64,000 nucleotides of DNA. Source: an uncultured Chloroflexia bacterium. GTDB lineage: Bacteria; Chloroflexota; Limnocylindria; Limnocylindrales; CSP1-4. Under the pieces are notes generated by a model. It saw only the letters and a program-made list of their open reading frames with translations, was not told the DNA's origin and ran no database searches. Both the position numbers and the translations under genes were made by a program. Where the stretch lies: contig CAVQJC010000020.1 of the NCBI GenBank assembly GCA_963712745.1, forward strand, positions 512,001 through 576,000. Reading direction: 5' to 3'. This document shows positions 4,190 to 12,855 of this stretch, one piece after another; position 1 is the stretch's first letter; each line of letters begins with the position of its first letter.

Positions 4190-5470
4190 TCAACCCGGTT
4201 CGCGGCGCGAACGGGAGACGCGCACCGACCCGCGGTCGACGACGATCTCGGCCGGCATGGGATGCGAGAGGAAGAGTGGCATGGACTCGCTGTAGCCGTA
4301 GGCGCCGGCGTCGAGCACCGCGAAGAGGTCGCCGGCCCGCGGTGCGGGTGCGCGCAGGTCGGAGGCGAGGATGTCGATACCGGTGCACAGCGGGCCGACC
4401 AGATCGACCCGGGCATCCGAAGAGCGCTCAGCTGCCGAACCCACCGGCAGCACGCGGTGATCCTGGCCCACCAGGCGCGGGCGCAACAGATGGTGGATAC
4501 CGCCGTCACTGACGGCCACCGAGCGGCCTCCCCGCACCTTGGTCCGAACGACACGGCAGAGATAGACCCCGGCCGGCGCGGCCAACCAACGGCCCGGCTC
4601 CAGCAGCAGCCGCGCCCCGCGAAGCGCCGGCCGCGTGGACCACGTATCCAACTCCCGGCCGATCCCCTCCCCCAGCGCAGCGAGGTCGAGGTCTGCCTCC
4701 CCGGCGGCATACGGAACGCCCAGCCCGCCCCCCGCGTCGAGCAGGGTCAGCTCCAGCCCGTGCCGCTCGGCGATGCGCTCGGTCCGCCGGGCCAGGTCGG
4801 CTACGCCCTCCACGAGCACGGCCGCCTCAAGCACGTTGGAGGCACCGAAGGCATGGAAGCCGCGCAGCACGAACGGCCCCTCGGGGGCGAGCGCGCCGGC
4901 TGCACGGAGCCGAGTGACCGCGGCGTCGGCCTCGTCGTCGGTAAGCCCGAACTTGACGTTGCCCGGGGCGCTGATGATGGGAAGTCCCTCGGCCTCGCCC
5001 TCGGTCGCCAGGCGCAGAGCCAGCCCCTGCCCAGGCTGCGCGCGGCCGGACATGGCCACGACCACGTCGAGCTCGTCGAGCGACTCGATCGTCAGCGCAC
5101 CCACGCCCGCGGTCAGCGCCTCCTCGATCTCCGCGTCGGTCTTGCCCGGGCCGGTGAAGACGACCCGGGCCGGGTCGAAGCCAGCGCGCAGGACCGCGCG
5201 CAGTTCGCCCCCGGAGGCGACGTCGGCACCGAGCCCGGCTGCGGCCAGCGTGCCCAGCACGTCGGGCGAGGAGTTGGCCTTGGTGGCGTAGGCCACCTCG
5301 ACCTCGCCCGGCAAGGCCCTGCGCAAGGCGGCCGCGCGGGAGCGCAACACTTCGGCGTCGTAGACGTACAAGGGGCTGCCGTAGGTGTGGGTGAGCTCGG
5401 CCGGGTCCAGGCCGGCGATGGTGCGCCCGACCTCGATGACGGGCGCAGCTGCCGTCGTCGCCCGACTCAC
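4190..5470 (-). CDS. lysA: Diaminopimelate decarboxylase (fold-type III PLP decarboxylase)
   Basis: GSPLYVYD, YATKAN, DVASGGEL, FTGPGK, DAGGG, LEPGR, VGPLCTGID and GAYG motifs. GTG start overlaps the dapD stop (GTGA). The 749-aa ORF-track start is an over-extension. Confidence 0.85.
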   Translation of the reverse strand: MSRATTAAAPVIEVGRTIAGLDPAELTHTYGSPLYVYDAEVLRSRAAALRRALPGEVEVAYATKANSSPDVLGTLAAAGLGADVASGGELRAVLRAGFDPARVVFTGPGKTDAEIEEALTAGVGALTIESLDELDVVVAMSGRAQPGQGLALRLATEGEAEGLPIISAPGNVKFGLTDDEADAAVTRLRAAGALAPEGPFVLRGFHAFGASNVLEAAVLVEGVADLARRTERIAERHGLELTLLDAGGGLGVPYAAGEADLDLAALGEGIGRELDTWSTRPALRGARLLLEPGRWLAAPAGVYLCRVVRTKVRGGRSVAVSDGGIHHLLRPRLVGQDHRVLPVGSAAERSSDARVDLVGPLCTGIDILASDLRAPAPRAGDLFAVLDAGAYGYSESMPLFLSHPMPAEIVVDRGSVRVSRSRREPG

Positions 5471-6399
5471 CGCAGAGCATCCTCCAGGGCCACCCGTGCG
5501 TCCGTGTTCGCGTCGCGGTACTTCACGATGAGCGGCACGGTCACCGAGATGCCCCTCTCCTGCGCCCACGCCGTGGTGGCCGGTCGCGTGCCCGGTATGA
5601 CCACCGCGCCGGACGGCACGACCAGCGGCGCGTCGGGCGTGCCGCGCAGCTCTCGCTCCTCGACCAGGTCGAACAGGCGGCTCTGGCCGGTGAGGATGGT
5701 GCCGGCACCGATGACGGCGCCGCGGCTGACGGTGACGCCCTCGTAGAGGCCTGCCCCACCACCTACGAAAGCGCCGTCCTCGACGATGACCGGCCGGGCG
5801 CCCGCCGGCTCCAGGACGCCGCCGATCTGGACCGCAGCACTGAGGTGGACAGCCTCGCCGACCTGGGCGCAGGAACCGACCAGCACGTGCGAGTCGATCA
5901 TCGTTCCCCGTCCCACCCAAGCGCCGATGTTGGCGTAGGCCGGCGGCATGATGGTCACGCCCGGTTCGAGATGAACGCCGCTGCGCACGGCGGTCCCGCC
6001 GGGGACGACGCGCCAGGGCGCTCCGGCGTCGGTGGCCGACCGAGCCGACGGACTCTCGAGCAGGTCCAGCAGGCCATAGGCCACCTTGTCCCGGGCAGCC
6101 ATGATCGGGCCATCCCGATACTCGCGCATGCCCGGCAGGCGAAAGCCCAGCAGGATGCCGGTCTTGACCCAGGCATCGACGCGCCAGCCTCCGTCGACCG
6201 ACGCGTCGGGAGCAGCCGCGCGCACCTCGCCGGCCTCGAGTGCCGTCACCAGCTCGGCCACCAGCGCGGCCACTTCCTCGAGCAAGGGCACGGCCGGCGC
6301 GCCCCCGGCCTCGGCCCAGGCCGCGTCGGCGGCAAGGACGCGTGCGGCCAGGGACGTCGCGCCGGGGACGGCGGCCTCGGCGGCCAGCTCGGTCGTCAT
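5467..6399 (-). CDS. dapD: Tetrahydrodipicolinate N-succinyltransferase
   Basis: WVKTGILLGFR, NIGAWVGRGTMID, VGSCAQVG and IGGVLEP hexapeptide region; located in the dap operon. Confidence 0.93.
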   Translation of the reverse strand: MTTELAAEAAVPGATSLAARVLAADAAWAEAGGAPAVPLLEEVAALVAELVTALEAGEVRAAAPDASVDGGWRVDAWVKTGILLGFRLPGMREYRDGPIMAARDKVAYGLLDLLESPSARSATDAGAPWRVVPGGTAVRSGVHLEPGVTIMPPAYANIGAWVGRGTMIDSHVLVGSCAQVGEAVHLSAAVQIGGVLEPAGARPVIVEDGAFVGGGAGLYEGVTVSRGAVIGAGTILTGQSRLFDLVEERELRGTPDAPLVVPSGAVVIPGTRPATTAWAQERGISVTVPLIVKYRDANTDARVALEDALR

Positions 6400-7322
6400 G
6401 CCGCGGCCACAGCAGCGGTCTCGAGCAGCCCCAGCTCATCGAGCACGCTGCGCAGCCGGGCGCGATTGGCGTCGTCCAGCGGCAGCATCGGCATGCGCAG
6501 GGCGTCGGTGATGAGGCCCATCTCGGCCATGGCCGCCTTCACTGGCGCGGGGCTGGTGGTGATGAAGTTGGCGCGGAAGAGGCCGAGGTAGCGGTAGTGG
6601 ATCGCGCGGGCGGTGTCCATGTCACCGGCGCTGGCCGCCGCGCACAGCTCGACCATCACCTGCGGCACCTCGTTGGAGGCCACCGAGATGACGCCATCGC
6701 CGCCCACGCCCATGATCGGCAGCGTCCAGCTGTCGTCGCCAGACAGCACCGCGAAGCCCTCCGGCCGGTCACGCACGATGGTCATGATCTGCTCCATGTT
6801 GGCCGAGGCCTCCTTCACGGCCACGATGCGCTCGTGCTCGGCCAGGTGCATGAGCGTGTCGGCGCCCACGTTGCCGCCGGTGCGGCCGGGCACGTTGTAG
6901 ACCACCACCGGCAGGCCGCCCTCGTCGGCCACGGCGCGGTAGTGGGCCTCGAGCATGCGCTGGTCTGGCTTGTTGTAGTAGGGCGAGACCACGAGCGCCG
7001 CGTCGGCTCCCACCTCCGCGGCCTGACGGGTGTAGTCGATGGCGTGCTGGGTCACGTTGGACCCGGTGCCGGCGATGACGGGAATGGTGCCGGTCATGCC
7101 ACGGCGCCGCACCGTCTCGACGGTGAGCTCGATGACGCGGCGATCTTCCTCCGTGCTCAAGGTCGGTGATTCGCCGGTCGTGCCCACCGGCACCAGGCCG
7201 TTGATGCCGGCGTCGATCTGGCGTTCGACCATGCGCACGAGGGTGGGCTCGTCGAGCGATCCGTCGGCGTTCATGGGAGTGACGAGGGCGGTGATGGCAC
7301 CGCTGAGGGTCGGAGTCGTCAT
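6396..7322 (-). CDS. dapA: 4-hydroxy-tetrahydrodipicolinate synthase
   Basis: TALVTP, GTTGES, PYYNKP, YNVPGRTG, KEAS and LSGDD motifs. Confidence 0.97.
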   Translation of the reverse strand: MTTPTLSGAITALVTPMNADGSLDEPTLVRMVERQIDAGINGLVPVGTTGESPTLSTEEDRRVIELTVETVRRRGMTGTIPVIAGTGSNVTQHAIDYTRQAAEVGADAALVVSPYYNKPDQRMLEAHYRAVADEGGLPVVVYNVPGRTGGNVGADTLMHLAEHERIVAVKEASANMEQIMTIVRDRPEGFAVLSGDDSWTLPIMGVGGDGVISVASNEVPQVMVELCAAASAGDMDTARAIHYRYLGLFRANFITTSPAPVKAAMAEMGLITDALRMPMLPLDDANRARLRSVLDELGLLETAAVAAA

Positions 7323-7343
7323 GTCTGTCGTTCCTTTCGGTCT

Positions 7344-8096
7344 TCAGGCGGTCCGCTCGCGGACCAGGGTCGTGAACTGGGTGATGCCTTGTCGGTCTGG
7401 CTGCTCGAGCAGGGTGTCGGCTGCGAGCAGGGCTCCGGCCACGTAGGCGGAGCGGTCACGTGCCTCGATGCGGACCTGGAGCGCCTCACCCGGGCCATCG
7501 AAGCCCACGGTGTGCATGCCCGGATGGCTGCCGGCGCGCAGGGCCACTACCTCCAGCACGTCTGGATCCGGCGCGCCGCTGCCCGTGGCCAGGCGCGCCT
7601 CGCGCTTCGAGCGGAGGTGAGGTACGAGTCGATCGGCCACCGCCAGGGCGGTGCCCGACGGTCGGTCGGCCTTGGCTGCGCGATGCTGCTCGAAGAGGTA
7701 GGGGTCGTAGTCACTGAAGTTGCCGAACAGTCGGGCGGCGTACTCGGCGATGTCACCGAAGAGGACGGCGCCAAGGCTGAAGGTCGGCGCCACCACGGCC
7801 CGCGCGCCGTTCCCGTCAAGCCGGGCCGCGAGCGCGGCGCCGGTGTCATCAGCGAGGCTCCAGCCGGTGGTACCGATGATGAACGCGCGGCAGCCGGCTG
7901 CCAGGCCAAGATCGATGTGCTCGAGCAAGGTCGAGTGGTGGCTGAACTCGAAGGTGACATCGACCGCTGCCAGGTCGTCGGCGGCCGGGTAGCCGGTCTC
8001 GCGCCCGGCGATCGCGGCGACCTGGTCCCCTCGTTTCTCGAGCGCGCCCGCGATGGCGCTGCCCATGTTGCCAGAGCCGGTGATGAGTGCTCGCAT
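7344..8096 (-). CDS. dapB: 4-hydroxy-tetrahydrodipicolinate reductase
   Basis: Rossmann GSGNMG, IGTTGW and EQHRAAKADRPSGTA motifs; ATG at 8096 after a GAGGA SD. Confidence 0.92.
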   Translation of the reverse strand: MRALITGSGNMGSAIAGALEKRGDQVAAIAGRETGYPAADDLAAVDVTFEFSHHSTLLEHIDLGLAAGCRAFIIGTTGWSLADDTGAALAARLDGNGARAVVAPTFSLGAVLFGDIAEYAARLFGNFSDYDPYLFEQHRAAKADRPSGTALAVADRLVPHLRSKREARLATGSGAPDPDVLEVVALRAGSHPGMHTVGFDGPGEALQVRIEARDRSAYVAGALLAADTLLEQPDRQGITQFTTLVRERTA

Positions 8097-8159
8097 CGTG
8101 CGTATTCCTCGTCGTGGTGTGGTGGTCGTCCGTGACGAGGCCGCCGGGGGCTCCGAGCC

Positions 8160-8200
8160 AAACAAAAAGACCGCAGTCACCCTCGTCGGTGTCTGCGGCC
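8160..8200 (-). terminator. Intrinsic terminator (attenuator) in the dapB leader
   Basis: mRNA GGCCGCAGACACC-GACGAG-GGTGACTGCGGTC followed by TTTTTGTTT, between the leader peptide and dapB. Confidence 0.8.
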
Positions 8201-8251
8201 CTCGGAGCCTTGCCTAGCGGCCCCGAGTCGGTCGTTCCCGAACGAAGCCGT

Positions 8252-8314
8252 CTAGGCCCGTGCCTCCAGGCAGGGCCGCGTGGGCTTCGGCTTGAGAACG
8301 TACTGGTACTGCAT
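8252..8314 (-). CDS. Putative Lys-sensing leader peptide MQYQYVLKPKPTRPCLEARA
   Basis: 20 codons, ATG 10 nt after a -10 box, AAG Lys codons at positions 8 and 10, followed by antiterminator and terminator, upstream of the lysine biosynthesis operon. Confidence 0.7.
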   Translation of the reverse strand: MQYQYVLKPKPTRPCLEARA

Positions 8315-8324
8315 CCGATGGCGG

Positions 8325-8353
8325 AGTCTGCCGGGTCGGGGCGGCCACGTCAA
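8325..8353 (-). promoter_or_regulatory. Sigma70-type promoter of the dap leader
   Basis: TTGACG-N17-CAGACT on the minus strand. Confidence 0.65.
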
Positions 8354-8397
8354 GTCGGCACCGTGATCCGGTGTTGCGCGGCCGCCCATGGCCGGTC

Positions 8398-9762
8398 TCA
8401 TGCCGCGACCTCGCCCTCCGTGCGCCCCCACCACGCCTCGAACGCATCGAAGCTCGGCGCGATGGGCTCGGGCAGGGTGGCGCTGTCGTCGCCGGCCAGC
8501 ACGTCGAGCGTCTTGAGGCCGTTACCGGTGATGACCAGCACGGTCTCCTCGTGGCGGCGCAGACGACCCTCGTCGATGGCCCGGCGCAACGCGGCCAGGG
8601 TCACACCGCCGGCGGTCTCGGTGAGGATGCCCTCGGTCTCGGCCAGCAGGCGGATGCTGTCGATGGTGGCCTCGTCGGGCACGCCGATGATGGCCGCGTC
8701 GCTCTCGCGTGCCTGGCGGATGGCGTAGCCCCCGTCAGCGGGTGAGCCGATCGACAAGGAGCGCACGATGGTATCGGGCTTCTCCACCGGCCGGACCAGG
8801 TCGGTCCCAGCGGCAAAGGCGTCGGCGATGGGCGCGCAGCCGTTGGCCTGGCCGCCAAAGAAGCGGACCGAAGCTTCGTCCAGCAGGCCCACGTCGACGA
8901 GCTCGCCGAAACCGCGCTGGAGCTTGGTGTACATGGAGCCGGAGGCCAGTGGCGCGAACAATGCATCAGGGGCTCGCCATCCGAGCTGCTGTGCGATCTC
9001 GTACGAGATCGTCTTGGAGCCCTCGGCGTAGTAGGGGCGCAGGTTGACATTGAGCACGGCCCAGCCTTCGAGCTCGTCGGTCAGCTCCAGGCACAGGCGG
9101 TTGACGTCGTCATAGGGGCCGTCGACCCGAACCACGGTGGCGCCCAGGGCGCGCGCCTGGGAGATCTTGGCGGCCTCGAGGTCGGCCGGGATGAACACGA
9201 CCGCGCGCAGGCCGTTGGCGGCAGCCGCGGCAGCGACGGCAGCGGAGAGGTTGCCAGTCGAGGCGCAGGCAAGCGTGTGGTAGCCCCATTGCCTGGCGCG
9301 GGCGGCAGCCACGGCCACCGGTCGGTCCTTGAAGGAGAGCGTGGGGTTGCGCGAATCGTCCTTCACCCACAGCTTGTCCAGCCCCACTCGCGCGGCCAGG
9401 CGGGGGGCATCGGTCAGCGGTGACTGGCCCACGCGCAGCCCGGACGTCGGCAGCTCGGTGACAGGCAGCAGCTCGGCATAGCGCCAGAGGGTCGCCTCAC
9501 GAGCATCGAGCGTCTCGCGGCTGATACGTGCCCGGATGCCCTCCAGGTCGTACACCGGCTCCAGCGGGCCAAAGCAGCGGGTGCACACGAAGACGGGCGC
9601 GTCCGCGGCTTCCCCGCCGCAGGCGCGGCAGCGCAGGCCGGTGAAACCGGGAACGAAGCCTCGCTCGGCCGAGGTCGTGGGCGGGCTCGATGCGGTACCC
9701 GCGGCGGGGGCGTCTTGTATGTCGGCGGTGTCGGACTGCGGGCGGATGGCGATCTGCGTCAT
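8398..9762 (-). CDS. thrC: Threonine synthase-family PLP enzyme with N-terminal Zn ribbon (possibly O-phosphohomoserine sulfhydrylase)
   Basis: CRAC..CTRC ribbon; NPTLSFKDR, CASTGN, EGSKT and VITGNGLK motifs; ATG at 9762 after GAGAGG. Confidence 0.8.
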   Translation of the reverse strand: MTQIAIRPQSDTADIQDAPAAGTASSPPTTSAERGFVPGFTGLRCRACGGEAADAPVFVCTRCFGPLEPVYDLEGIRARISRETLDAREATLWRYAELLPVTELPTSGLRVGQSPLTDAPRLAARVGLDKLWVKDDSRNPTLSFKDRPVAVAAARARQWGYHTLACASTGNLSAAVAAAAAANGLRAVVFIPADLEAAKISQARALGATVVRVDGPYDDVNRLCLELTDELEGWAVLNVNLRPYYAEGSKTISYEIAQQLGWRAPDALFAPLASGSMYTKLQRGFGELVDVGLLDEASVRFFGGQANGCAPIADAFAAGTDLVRPVEKPDTIVRSLSIGSPADGGYAIRQARESDAAIIGVPDEATIDSIRLLAETEGILTETAGGVTLAALRRAIDEGRLRRHEETVLVITGNGLKTLDVLAGDDSATLPEPIAPSFDAFEAWWGRTEGEVAA

Positions 9763-9813
9763 CAGGGGGATCCTCTCGGGTCGGAGCGGCCTGGCCGGCC
9801 GCAAGTGCTCGTG

Positions 9814-9853
9814 AATCACGAAGGCCGCGACCTTCGCTTCGTTGGTCGCGGCC
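9814..9853 (-). terminator. Putative attenuator hairpin in the thrC-like leader
   Basis: Perfect 10-bp stem GGCCGCGACC/GGTCGCGGCC with an 11-nt loop; weak U-tract (TTCGTGATT). Confidence 0.6.
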
Positions 9854-9901
9854 CCTGGGATCCGGCCTGATGTCGAGCGCTGCGTTCGGGCGCGCCCGGC
9901 C

Positions 9902-9964
9902 TCAGACCCCGACCGATCCCGGCGGGGCCTCGGGCATCGCCATGCGAGTACCGTGCAGCTTCAT
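9902..9964 (-). CDS. Putative Met-sensing leader peptide MKLHGTRMAMPEAPPGSVGV
   Basis: 20 codons, ATG 7 nt after TACCAT (leaderless), Met codons at positions 8 and 10; the stop codon lies within a long antiterminator helix. Confidence 0.65.
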   Translation of the reverse strand: MKLHGTRMAMPEAPPGSVGV

Positions 9965-9971
9965 CGGCCGG

Positions 9972-10001
9972 ATGGTAGACGGGAGACCCGGTAATTGGCA
10001 A
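9972..10001 (-). promoter_or_regulatory. Sigma70-type promoter of the thrC-like leader
   Basis: TTGCCA-N18-TACCAT on the minus strand. Confidence 0.65.
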
Positions 10002-10060
10002 CCCCTTCAGTACACATATGCACGATACGGCGGACTACTCACTAGTCCCGTGCTCGTGAC

Positions 10061-10095
10061 TGCATAGTGATGCGCCCCTGCTGTATAGTCACGAG
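10061..10095 (+). promoter_or_regulatory. Tandem ARG boxes overlapping the argR -10 (autorepression)
   Basis: TGCATAGTGATGCG (10061) and a degenerate TGTATAGTCACGAG (10082) at 21-bp period. TATAGT -10 at 10084-10089, 6 nt before the GTG. Confidence 0.6.
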
Positions 10096-10614
10096 GTGAG
10101 CCCATCGAGTCGACCCGGTTCTTCGCGCGCCCTCAAGCGGGAGCGCCAGCTTCTCATCCGCGAGCTCGTCGCGACCGGCGCGGTGGCCAACCAGCACGAG
10201 CTGGTGGAGCTGCTGGCAGCGCGCGGCTACGAGGTGACCCAGGCGACCGTCAGTCGTGACGTCACCGAGCTGGGCCTGGTCAAGACGACTGCCGACGGCC
10301 GGCACGTCTATTCGGCCCCTGGCGACCTCGGGGGTGCGCCACCGCCCAGCGACGAACGGTTGTGGCGGATCCTGGCCGACTACCCCGTCCGCATCGGGCG
10401 CTCGGGGCTGACGTTGCTGCTAGTGTCGGAGGCCGGCGTGGCCAACGCCATCGGCCAGGCCATCGACGAGTCGACGTTCCACGAACAGGAAGGCACGCTT
10501 GCGGGTGACAACACCATCCTCGTCCTCTTCGCCGACGAAGGCCGCCTCGAGGCGTGGCTGGAGCGCTTCGAGGCGCTTCGCGCTGCCGTGTCGATGAGGG
10601 GATACGCAGGATGA
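10096..10614 (+). CDS. argR: Arginine repressor
   Basis: VTQATVSRD winged HTH and GTLAGDNT arginine-binding motif. Confidence 0.95.
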   Translation: MSPSSRPGSSRALKRERQLLIRELVATGAVANQHELVELLAARGYEVTQATVSRDVTELGLVKTTADGRHVYSAPGDLGGAPPPSDERLWRILADYPVRIGRSGLTLLLVSEAGVANAIGQAIDESTFHEQEGTLAGDNTILVLFADEGRLEAWLERFEALRAAVSMRGYAG

Positions 10615-11330
10615 CGATGCTCGGCGACGAGCCGGAAGAGCAGGGGCCGGCCACCAAGCCGTTGAAGATCCTGGTGGTCGACGACGAGCCGGCCATGGTC
10701 GGCGCGATGGGTGCGCTGCTGGGCCAGGCCGGCCATCGCATCATCGCGGCCTACGACGGCGAAGAGGCCCTACGCCGCTTCCGTGATGAGGAACCCGACC
10801 TGGTGCTGCTCGACCTGGCCATGCCGGGCATGGACGGGGCCACGGTCTGCCGGCGCATCCGGGACGTCAGCGACACGCCCATCATCGTGGTCTCGGGAGA
10901 ACGCGACGACACCGCCACCGTGGAGCTGCTCGATATCGGGGCCGACGACTACGTGCGCAAGCCGTTCCGTGCTGACGAGCTGCTGGCGCGGGTGCGTGCC
11001 GTCTCGCGGCGATCGGCCGGCAGCCGCGGCGACCGGGCCAAGGGTGACCCGTCCGGCTATGAGCTCGACCGGCGCCGCCACGAGATCCGCTGGCAGGGCA
11101 CGCCGTTGCCCACGACGGTGACAGAGTTCCGCTTGCTGCAGGCCATGGTCGAGCGGCTGGGCGAGGTCGTTCCGCACGAGGAGCTGTTGGCAGCGGGCTG
11201 GCCGGATGTGCCCGACCCCGACCCGCTGTGGCTGAAGCCACACCTCGCGCGCCTGCGCGAGAAGCTGGTCACCGCGGGAGCGCCGGTGCCGGTGGCCGTG
11301 CGCGGTGTGGGCTACCGACTCGACGCCTAG
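10611..11330 (+). CDS. OmpR/PhoB-family response regulator
   Basis: ILVVDDE, LLDLAMPG, GADDYVRKPF, wHTH LARLREKL..VRGVGY; ATGA overlap with the argR stop. Confidence 0.93.
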   Translation: MTMLGDEPEEQGPATKPLKILVVDDEPAMVGAMGALLGQAGHRIIAAYDGEEALRRFRDEEPDLVLLDLAMPGMDGATVCRRIRDVSDTPIIVVSGERDDTATVELLDIGADDYVRKPFRADELLARVRAVSRRSAGSRGDRAKGDPSGYELDRRRHEIRWQGTPLPTTVTEFRLLQAMVERLGEVVPHEELLAAGWPDVPDPDPLWLKPHLARLREKLVTAGAPVPVAVRGVGYRLDA

Positions 11331-11385
11331 CCGGAACCGCCCCGGCAACCAGCTGGGGCGGCCACCGGGCCGAACGCGTCCGGTC

Positions 11386-11473
11386 GTCACCGTGCCGTTA
11401 CCGAACGTGCACCACGCAGCGACCACTTCCCGACCGCCCTGTCGCTGACATCCTCCTGCGCGCTCCGTAGGGT
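11386..11473 (+). promoter_or_regulatory. amtB promoter with five helically phased direct repeats
   Basis: GTCACC, GTTACC, TGCACC, GCGACC and CCGACC at exact 11-bp period (11386-11435), then CTGACA-N17-TAGGGT. Confidence 0.55.
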
Positions 11474-11550
11474 CGGCATCCAACAGTGCCGGGTCCTGTC
11501 TGCCCGGCGGACCGAGTGGGGCAAGACCCATCGCAGGAGGGACAATCGGA

Positions 11551-12855
11551 ATGATCAACGCTGGCGATACCGCCTGGATGCTGATATCGACAGCATTGGT
11601 GATGCTGATGCTGCCGGGTCTGGCACTGTTCTACGGCGGCCTGGTACGGGCCAAGAACGTGCTCTCGACCATCATGCACAGCTTCTTCGGCCTGGCCATC
11701 GTGACTGTGGTGTGGGTCATCGTCGGCTTCAGCCTGGCCTTCGGCGACTCGCTCGGTGGTGCGGGCATCGTCGGCGACCCGCTGCAGTACCTCTTCTTCA
11801 GCGGCGTAGGCATGGAGCCGGCCGAGGGCAGCACCATCCCGTTCGTCCTCTTCGCCACCTTCCAGATGATGTTCGCAGCCATCACGCCGGCACTCATCAG
11901 CGGCGCCTTCGCCGAGCGCAAGCGCTTTGCCGCGTTCGTCGTCTTCACCATCGCCTGGTCGCTCCTGGTCTACTCGCCCATGGCCCACATGGTCTGGGGC
12001 GGCGGCCTGCTTTCCACGCTCGGTGAGAACGGTGCGCTCGATTTCGCCGGCGGCACCGTGGTCCATATCGCCTCAGGTGTCTCCGCTCTGATCGTCGCCC
12101 TGGTCATGGGTCGCCGCGTCGCCGGCCACCACGTGGAGCCGCACGACGTGCCCATGACCGTGCTCGGCGCTGGCCTGCTCTGGTTCGGCTGGTTCGGCTT
12201 CAACGCCGGCTCGGCGCTGGCTGCTGACGGCCTGGCCGCTCAGGCGCTCATGGTGACCACCGTCTCCGCTGCCGCCGGTACGCTCACCTGGGTCGGTGCC
12301 TCGTACATCAAGGGCCGCAAGGTCAGCGTGGTCGGTGCTGCCGCCGGTGCGGTGGCCGGTCTTGTGGCCATCACCCCGGCCGCCGGCTTCGTCACCGTCG
12401 GCGGTGCGTTGGCCCTGGGCCTGGCCGCTGGTGCCCTCTGCTTCGCGGTCACGCTGCTGCGCGAGCGCCTGGCCATCGACGACTCCCTCGACGTCTTCGC
12501 TGTCCACGGCGTGGGCGGCATCTGGGGCGCCGTCGGCACGGGCATCTTCGCGGTCGCGGCCATCGGTGGGGTCTCCGGCCTCATCGAGGGCAACGTCGAG
12601 CAGTTGATCGTCCAGATCGCCGCCGTCGCCTTCACGGTCGTCTTCGCCTCGGTCATGACCTTCATCATCATCAAGGTCATCGACGTGCTCATCGGCCTGC
12701 GCGTCCCCGCGGAGGAGGAAGAGGCCGGCCTGGACGTGGCTGTCCACGGCGAGACCGCCTACGTGCCCTGGGCCGGCACCACCAGCGGCGCGGTCATGGC
12801 CTCGCCGACCGCGCAGCCGGCACCACCACCCGTTACGGAGGCTGAACCCGCCTAG
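11551..12855 (+). CDS. amtB: Ammonium transporter
   Basis: GDTAWML, FQMMFA, DFAGGTVVH, WFGWFGFNAGS and DDSLDVFAVHG motifs. Confidence 0.98.
   Translation: MINAGDTAWMLISTALVMLMLPGLALFYGGLVRAKNVLSTIMHSFFGLAIVTVVWVIVGFSLAFGDSLGGAGIVGDPLQYLFFSGVGMEPAEGSTIPFVLFATFQMMFAAITPALISGAFAERKRFAAFVVFTIAWSLLVYSPMAHMVWGGGLLSTLGENGALDFAGGTVVHIASGVSALIVALVMGRRVAGHHVEPHDVPMTVLGAGLLWFGWFGFNAGSALAADGLAAQALMVTTVSAAAGTLTWVGASYIKGRKVSVVGAAAGAVAGLVAITPAAGFVTVGGALALGLAAGALCFAVTLLRERLAIDDSLDVFAVHGVGGIWGAVGTGIFAVAAIGGVSGLIEGNVEQLIVQIAAVAFTVVFASVMTFIIIKVIDVLIGLRVPAEEEEAGLDVAVHGETAYVPWAGTTSGAVMASPTAQPAPPPVTEAEPA

Follow-up and report, generated by a model that had tools for sequence, protein, structure and literature searches.

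The window analysed here, a stretch of 64,000 nucleotides (nt) from an uncultured Chloroflexia bacterium of the GTDB lineage Limnocylindrales; CSP1-4 (assembly GCA_963712745.1, contig CAVQJC010000020.1, positions 512,001 to 576,000), carries a thrC-like gene followed by dapB, dapA and dapD, all on the minus strand. Each of the two non-coding stretches that precede these genes, 9763..10001 for the thrC-like gene and 8097..8397 for dapB, holds a short open reading frame (sORF) of 20 codons, with two codons for one amino acid near its middle and a series of hairpins behind them that ends in a candidate terminator. The codons match the pathway downstream in both cases: dapBAD is preceded by K-x-K, and M-x-M precedes a methionine-regulon gene. 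Both elements, termed here the Lys leader and the Met leader, are probably ribosome-mediated (leader-peptide) transcription attenuators, a reading held with good though not full confidence. The genes concerned are:

8398..9762, minus strand: thrC-family pyridoxal phosphate enzyme, probably a MetM-type homocysteine synthase (PALP domain; TIGR00260 score above cut-off)
8096..7344, minus strand: dapB (Pfam, NCBIfam)
7322..6396, minus strand: dapA (Pfam, NCBIfam)
6399..5467, minus strand: dapD (Pfam, NCBIfam)

The Met leader is composed of the following features:

9996..10001, minus strand: -35 hexamer TTGCCA (promoter scan; TTGC-type hexamers at the same place in most loci of the genus)
9972..9977, minus strand: -10 hexamer TACCAT, with an 18-nt spacer, 7 nt before the ATG (promoter scan and genus loci)
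9902..9964, minus strand: sORF MKLHGTRMAMPEAPPGSVGV, 20 codons, ATG at 9964 and stop at 9904..9902 (nt 61-63)
9905..9929, minus strand: hairpin 1, GGCCCC...GGGGTC, sORF nt 36-60, ending at the stop codon (RNAalifold)
9850..9872, minus strand: 3' strand of the long helix of the predicted antiterminator, overlapping the first 4 nt of the terminator stem (constrained folds)
9813..9853, minus strand: terminator hairpin of 10 bp plus its tail TTCGTGATTC (folding)

The Lys leader comprises:

8348..8353, minus strand: -35 hexamer TTGACG (TTGAC kept in 13/13 genus loci)
8325..8330, minus strand: -10-like hexamer CAGACT, with a 17-nt spacer, 10 nt before the ATG (conservation in 13/13 genus loci)
8252..8314, minus strand: sORF MQYQYVLKPKPTRPCLEARA, 20 codons, ATG at 8314 and stop at 8254..8252 (nt 61-63)
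8255..8279, minus strand: hairpin 1, its 5' arm GCGGCCC also complementary to the terminator 5' arm GGGCCGC (covariation, 35 sequences)
8230..8251, minus strand: post-stop segment, pairing with codons 5-11, Lys codons included, in the ribosome-free fold (folding)
8201..8227, minus strand: hairpin immediately 5' of the terminator; the strands of this hairpin also take part in the predicted antiterminator and in a terminator-enclosing helix (folding)
8158..8200, minus strand: terminator hairpin of 12 bp (stem 8200..8169) plus TCTTTTTGTTT (folding; covariation)
8149..8159, minus strand: segment GGCTCGGAGCC 3' of the U tract, with its partner GGCTCCGAG upstream of the terminator (folding)
8107..8140, minus strand: hairpin CCTCGTC...GACGAGG covering the dapB Shine-Dalgarno sequence (by eye)

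The sensing codons occupy positions 8 (9943..9941) and 10 (9937..9935) of the Met sORF, where they are followed by P11, and positions 8 (8293..8291) and 10 (8287..8285) of the Lys sORF. The original prediction, made from the letters of this DNA, had described two 20-codon leaders with the ATG 7-10 nt after the -10 box and with an antiterminator helix that competes with a terminator hairpin, and this description holds on the minus strand. Its promoters fared unequally. That of the Met leader was the only promoter-like site found by the scan in 7900..10300 (shuffles gave a mean of 0.2), while the Lys CAGACT is too weak for the same tool, yet is kept in all genus loci. Neither sORF is preceded by a Shine-Dalgarno sequence and, because the -10 element also lies so close to the ATG, both are predicted to be leaderless or nearly so. 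The stem of the Met terminator (GGCCGCGACC/GGTCGCGGCC) lies at 9853..9823 and its tail is weak, whereas that of the Lys leader in this genus is a clean U tract; a terminator scan tool listed neither the Met nor the Lys hairpin.

In order to assess conservation, the proteins of 40 relatives were searched, which returned 22 loci of the same genus with an ortholog of the thrC-like gene, 21 of them including upstream DNA. With the window added to the other loci, the sets count 22 Met leaders (21 plus one) and 13 Lys leaders (12 plus one). All 21 other loci with upstream DNA have the Met sORF, and all 12 in which dapB lies within reach downstream have the Lys sORF. The proposed sensing residues are kept almost throughout: M8 and M10 occur in 21/22 loci around a ninth codon that is GCG, TCG, GTG or GCC, and K-x-K in 13/13, the middle residue being Lys in two loci, Arg in one and Pro in all others (KKK, KRK, KPK). 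The length of 20 codons is likewise shared by 20 of the 22 Met sORFs (19 codons in L013) and 12 of the 13 Lys sORFs. A hexamer of TAnnnT or CAnnnT type ends 7 nt before the Met start in 21/22 loci (8 nt in L023), and CAGACT, CACACT, CATGCT or CAGAAT ends 9-10 nt before the Lys ATG in every locus. In one locus, L014, the thrC-like stop is separated from the Lys leader by a 634-nt spacer filled with repeats of ~60-70 nt (…CCTCCGCCCCGTACCGCGCGGTCGACCACGCGATCC…).

The layout by itself is not rare. A crude scan for a short open reading frame after a -10-like hexamer, followed by a hairpin and a T-rich tail, returned 360 cases genome-wide, so that the case for both leaders rests on their conservation, which lifts them above chance.

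The structures are also supported by compensatory change. Over 35 Lys leaders, 97.3% of the alignment cells of hairpin 1 and the outer terminator are paired, a figure that sliding the 3' partner lowers to 55% or less, and 6 of the 17 pairs have changed on both sides (4/9 in hairpin 1 and 2/8 of the outer terminator pairs), a level that none of 500 shuffles reached. The alignment of Lys leaders from other genera gives the same picture for hairpin 1 and the terminator; in the folds of these leaders hairpin 1 is extended, with the last two Lys codons and CUCU of the stop region pairing at its base. For the Met hairpin 1, RNAalifold reports one pair changed on both sides (G-C to A-U), and by eye L013, L015, L016 and L017 have different yet pairing stems. 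The long helix of the Met leader has 93.8% of its cells paired and four pairs changed on both sides, a level that none of 500 shuffles equalled, although each of these changes occurs in a single sequence and the covariation is weak.

The following steps are inferred from this anatomy: the sORFs would be translated, ribosomes would stall on them, the helices would fold in a given order and the outcome would respond to starvation. The transcript would start at the ATG or a few bases before it. When the amino acid is plentiful, the ribosome would reach the stop codon and leave, and hairpin 1 would fold, reinforced in the Lys leader by the pairing of codons 5-11 with the post-stop segment; the second hairpin and the terminator would then form and transcription would end short of the structural gene. 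A shortage of charged tRNA-Lys or elongator tRNA-Met would stall the ribosome with codon 8 or 10 in the A site; so placed, it would cover the RNA to about nt 35 and abolish the upstream pairing. The long helix could then zip from nt 36-38 as the polymerase advances, across the stop codon, capturing the first 4-6 nt of the terminator 5' arm. The terminator thus weakened, dapB-dapA-dapD or the thrC-like gene (probably of MetM type) would be transcribed.

The stalled state was modelled with a stall mask that covers the RNA to nt 35-37, as would a ribosome whose A site contains codon 10; base pairing can start about 11 nt past the codon in the P site. With the ribosome-covered part masked, the long helix becomes the minimum-energy fold, and like the helix of the original prediction it crosses the stop codon and invades the terminator 5' arm; it begins at nt 36-38 and claims 4 pairs of that arm in the Met leader and 6 in the Lys leader. 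This outcome, with the terminator probability at ~0.45-0.74, was obtained in 3/6 Lys and 4/8 Met leaders of the genus, and with the ribosome at the stop codon the terminator probability is at least 0.8 in most of them. Among Lys leaders of other genera the mask produced a switch in one of eight (L036, 0.46), L031 dropping only to 0.63. In addition, the 5' arm of hairpin 1 mimics the 3' arm of the terminator. The models suggest a switch only in part and, since the terminator is the more stable fold, the switch would have to be kinetic. In the E. coli trp leader, too, the terminator is thermodynamically stronger than the antiterminator.

Several observations weigh against attenuation as set out above. 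Under the stall mask the terminator is still favoured in 3/6 Lys and 4/8 Met leaders of the genus and in 7/8 Lys leaders of other genera, and the Met antiterminator takes only 4 of the 10 terminator pairs. The pairs on which the switch turns are silent: the competing arms GCGGCCC/GGGCCGC and GGCCCC/GGGGCC never vary, so that covariation cannot judge them, and the comparison of related genomes, which upheld the codons and the pairing of hairpin 1 and terminator, leaves these key antiterminator pairs invariant. The lower stem AGAAGCUCUGG/CCUGGGGCUCU of other genera, counterpart of the post-stop pairing, has one-sided changes only. The tail of the Met terminator is poor in U. The -10 hexamer of the Lys leader is weak and lies 9-10 nt from the ATG, which makes a truly leaderless start uncertain. 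Position 8 of the Met leader is Ile in L012, and in L011 a stop directly after M-A-M-R ends the reading frame at codon 11. Transcript data speak neither for nor against the model: in one metatranscriptome run 30% of the sampled words were present, as low-depth contigs without strand, starts or ends, one of which extends from 9759 across the predicted Met start and ends beyond 10050.

The rarity with which thermodynamic folds remove the terminator could also mean that the sORFs sense amino acids while the main output is control of translation initiation, through a relay of helices to the Shine-Dalgarno sequence, or Rho-dependent polarity. Between species, both strands of the hairpin over the dapB Shine-Dalgarno sequence have changed (by eye; both arms read GGTCCC...GGGACC in L014, L021 and L023), and in the Lys leaders of other genera a GGAGG/CCUCC helix around the terminator has 2/5 pairs changed on both sides, its CCUCC being able to pair with the Shine-Dalgarno sequence instead. 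Leaderless poly-Cys sORFs of mycobacteria are described, in the available part of the report, as attenuators of operonic expression (bioRxiv 10.1101/834739). Against this, a strong covarying hairpin with a T-rich tail is retained in both leaders, the tail of the Lys leader in this genus being a clean U tract, the mimicry between the arms of hairpin 1 and terminator is the usual mark of an antiterminator, and the Met leader has no obvious hairpin over the Shine-Dalgarno sequence of the gene downstream. We regard such an output as improbable in the role of the principal one, and it can coexist with transcription attenuation; a second layer of control at the dapB ribosome-binding site is possible.

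The Lys leader is not confined to the genus. An exact pattern consisting of the Lys codons and hairpin 1 was searched in 401 genomes of the order, representing 44 genera, and matched in 156 genomes of 24 genera, with a single match for the reversed control. The matches comprise 155 of the 358 other genomes of the family plus the genome under study, and none of the 42 genomes of a small-genome sister family; one unpublished genome, G120, is included in these counts, and no conclusion depends on it. AAG is the middle codon in most matches, with about twelve alternatives making up the rest. Of 25 loci from other genera, 24 have a dapB homolog (38-53% identity) that starts 190-205 nt after the Lys codons; the 25th locus is cut short. 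A tally from a scan allowing two mismatches (283/401) was not used, as its reversed-pattern control matched about as often; 30 of its loci were examined, of which 25 had a leader, four were noise and one lay inside a gene. A match of a leader pattern in Arthrobacter proved to be a terminator between convergent genes.

Lys leaders of other genera have 25-27 codons (e.g. MSHRFVSFDSKKKLWRPCREARALGL), with Lys at positions 10-13, mostly as KKK. The distance from the ATG to the first AAG is 27, 30 or 33 nt in these genera, and with the 21 nt found in the genus all distances are multiples of three. The first AAG, unlike the middle codon, never varies, even though the predicted stem does not include it, and the codon that precedes the Lys run varies at its third position (GCC, GCG, GCT, GCA). 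The layout of 20 codons with sensing positions 8 and 10 thus appears largely genus-level rather than family-wide, although many of the M-C-M leaders described below likewise place Met at 8 and 10. The general feature is a gap of 5 nt from the last sensing codon to the hairpin arm GCGGCCC. Where the thrC-like gene and dapB are apart, the Lys leader stays with dapB.

The gene behind the Met leader scores above the threonine synthase cut-off of TIGR00260, and other thrC paralogs occur in the genome. Orthologs of 57-58% identity were examined in three other genera (G049, G054, G060), and in all three a SAM-I (S-adenosylmethionine) riboswitch of 71-76 bits precedes the gene, an arrangement that points to a methionine-regulon gene. 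The corresponding model (RF00162) has no match upstream of the thrC-like gene of the window (6000..12000, E up to 1), and the Met leader stands where the sister genera have the riboswitch. In one of the three, G060, the ortholog overlaps the start of a ThiS-family gene; the ThiS-family carrier homolog of the genome under study lies on another contig. The available parts of two reports (PMC13759103, PMC12172450) describe Streptomyces MetM as a thrC paralog that makes homocysteine from O-phosphohomoserine with a thiocarboxylated carrier and whose gene has an upstream SAM riboswitch. The product of the thrC-like gene is probably a homocysteine synthase of this type, and the leader data support annotating it as an enzyme of the methionine pathway, not as threonine synthase.

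The genome still has three SAM-I riboswitches elsewhere, behind none of which was a methionine gene recognised, and its metY directly follows another gene and is without a leader. Behind two of the riboswitches, L109 (C8:15064-15181) and L110 (C4:291119-291216), the first recognisable gene, 350-630 nt away, encodes an ECF-type (extracytoplasmic function) sigma factor.

A simpler account would have both hairpins act constitutively, 8200..8169 as the terminator of the thrC-like gene and 9853..9823 as the end of a small promoter-proximal RNA, with no sensing of amino acids. The interval from the thrC-like stop (8398) to the Lys leader has no terminator of its own, so that the Lys terminator probably does end read-through from the thrC-like gene as well, and the number of sORF-plus-hairpin layouts in the genome shows how commonly they arise by chance. 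This account is scarcely credible, given that the Lys leader travels with dapB where the thrC-like gene is elsewhere, that its sensing codons are conserved across 24 genera and that the Met element occupies the place of a SAM riboswitch.

The distribution of the Met leader was first underestimated by a strict pattern, with matches in 7/9 genomes of the genus and in 0/191 others, which was set aside as a gauge of spread once a covariance model had found Met leaders in other genera. This model, built from 22 Met leaders and searched at E up to 0.001 in 151 genomes of the family (49 genera), matches 33 genomes of 19 genera. Of 25 loci outside the genus, 23 were read (L089, from an unpublished genome, and L106 were left out). 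ATG-NNN-ATG is found in 21 of them (e.g. MNTYRRSMCMRWRPRRAEDGV, MSPHEILMAMRGRPRRVEGSVQV, MRMAMGMAMPWRPRRAEDGV), and the remaining two, both of genus g16, encode Cys-rich peptides, MSRSCMCRCRSAACRPPDGA (L102, G165) and MCPCRSAALRPPDGA (L096, G122). The first gene downstream is metY-like in 16 loci, thrC-like in two (g47, g43), OsmC-like in three and a 3-mercaptopyruvate sulfurtransferase gene in two, identities that come from NCBIfam for 12 of the 23 and from N-terminal likeness for the rest (five metY-like calls by NCBIfam, 11 by an N-terminal motif alone). The Met element therefore precedes a thrC-like gene in the genus under study and in at least two others, and both Cys-rich leaders precede the sulfurtransferase gene, suggesting that they may be cysteine-sensing members of the same scaffold. 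Three loci, L095 (G061), L100 (G100) and L104 (G074), have M-C-M leaders whose first gene encodes an OsmC-related protein of ~176 aa and is not metY.

The leader classes are linked to each other in several ways. The Met covariance model also matches, over its full length, the Lys leaders of G046 (L106) and G044, and TGG CGG CCC directly after the sensing codons is common to Lys and M-C-M leaders. A 16-mer of the terminator tail, GCGGCCTTYGTGATTC, occurs once each in 6 of 101 genomes and in no control, its carriers being three Met leaders of the genus, one Met leader of G114 (g47) and two Lys leaders of g8. A search of the genome under study with an nhmmer profile of Lys leaders detected the Met terminator at E 0.015 only; the match was not used, as a false match inside a gene, at E 4e-4, scored better. 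The profile being indecisive, common descent of the two leaders of the window rests on the cross-matches of the covariance model and the shared 16-mer. Together these likenesses make good, though not conclusive, evidence that the Lys, Met and Cys classes share descent.

The best reading of these alignments is that both leaders represent one scaffold, used in this family with Lys, Met and probably Cys codons. What the original prediction had called a modular attenuator family survives in this form, while the exact geometry of 20 codons with positions 8 and 10 does not extend over the family; its proposal that a codon swap changes the amino acid sensed would rest on these natural variants. AAG and AUG are one base apart. 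A wider proposal, that one scaffold was copied and re-targeted within a single family through a few codons (AAG for Lys, AUG for Met, UGU for Cys) and displaced SAM-I before the MetM-type gene in several genera, is in our judgement evenly poised between right and wrong.

Conservation of this kind could also be that of an RNA which binds a ligand or protein directly. Both elements would then be new switches responding to Lys and to Met or S-adenosylmethionine, the short reading frames being by-products of the conserved RNA, as the very high nucleotide conservation 3' of the sensing codons, the intact structure of L011 with its frame ending at codon 11 and the usual sensing of Lys and Met by riboswitches might suggest. 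A ligand pocket would not be re-targeted as this scaffold is, with Lys, Met or Cys codons matching the pathway. The start codon stands at a fixed distance from the -10 hexamer, spacer lengths vary by multiples of three only and the codon before the Lys run varies at its third position. The structures are plain hairpins with alternative pairings and no multi-helix junction. An Rfam search of 6000..12000 on both strands (E up to 1) returned no riboswitch, T-box or leader family, its sole match being a chance small RNA below threshold, and the covariance models of the lysine riboswitch (L-box) and T-box gave no match on either strand in the same range. On this evidence a ligand- or protein-binding switch is very unlikely, and attenuation by a translating ribosome is preferred.

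Attenuation by leader peptides is textbook knowledge for Trp, His, Thr, Leu, Ile/Val and Phe, and the known RNA-level sensors of Lys and Met are riboswitches and T-boxes; the L-box and SAM-I (S-box, RF00162) do the same regulatory job by direct binding of the ligand, with no need for a reading frame. The elements described here share with the enterobacterial trpL, hisL, thrL, leuL, pheL and ilvL a short reading frame with codons of the regulated amino acid, a hairpin melted by the ribosome and a terminator whose 5' arm has an alternative partner. Unlike these, they carry Lys or Met codons, only two or three of them, have no Shine-Dalgarno sequence and are probably leaderless, and instead of a simple 2:3 stem their predicted antiterminator consists of a long composite helix, which takes the place of hairpin 1. 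None of the leader families of Rfam matches them.

Closer parallels come from other bacteria. The polycysteine sORFs of mycobacteria (bioRxiv 10.1101/834739), as far as described in the available part of that report, are likewise leaderless first cistrons whose cognate codons tune an operon in a high-GC organism, and the Cys-rich variants before the sulfurtransferase gene resemble them; differences are the clear intrinsic terminator after the sORF and the Lys and Met specificity seen here. In Actinobacteria, also of high GC, Seliverstov et al. (2005, PMC1262725) predicted by comparison leader peptides with terminators for trp, ilvB, leu and cys, and the available sections of their paper state that no conserved RNA structures were seen upstream of Lys and Met operons. 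The trpL attenuator RNA of Sinorhizobium meliloti similarly starts with the AUG of its leader reading frame; it senses Trp, belongs to an alphaproteobacterium and has a documented function in trans, according to the parts available of the report (PMC10117765). A literature search on leader-peptide attenuation combined with lysine, methionine, dapB, Actinobacteria or Chloroflexi found no Lys or Met leader attenuator, with most subscription journals outside its coverage.

Thus the ribosome appears to do for Lys and Met in these bacteria what riboswitches and T-boxes do elsewhere, and what the window adds is the Met twin of the Lys leader, the alternation with a riboswitch and the shared scaffold. 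It offers a case of riboswitch and leader peptide alternating before orthologous genes, as well as a natural set of variants for testing how few codons, and what spacing, suffice for sensing. As a compact part, the leader might be given a new specificity by exchanging its codons. A re-targeted scaffold would, if true, amount to a naturally programmable sensor of amino acids and would document the exchange of a riboswitch for a leader peptide.

Scans of the whole genome for additional leaders of this group suffered from noise or from too narrow a scope, and yielded, besides the two leaders of the window, one unrelated aromatic leader only. The latter lies outside the window, on contig C1 at ~484,890-485,100 (plus strand): a short reading frame with ...MTSYWYFS at its end spells Tyr, Trp and Phe in AT-rich codons, a strong terminator (GCAGG...CCTGCGTTTTTTGTTT) stands behind it, and the gene that comes next has an N-terminus that looks like the regulatory domain of DAHP synthase. 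It is probably an attenuator for aromatic amino acids built on a different scaffold.

On the other side of the Met leader, argR is transcribed divergently from 10096. Between it and the Met promoter, at 10010..10095, lie paired motifs, (A)GTATACAG ... GCATNACTATGCA, found by eye at the same site in nearly all loci of the genus. These are probably ArgR operators serving autoregulation of the divergent argR gene.

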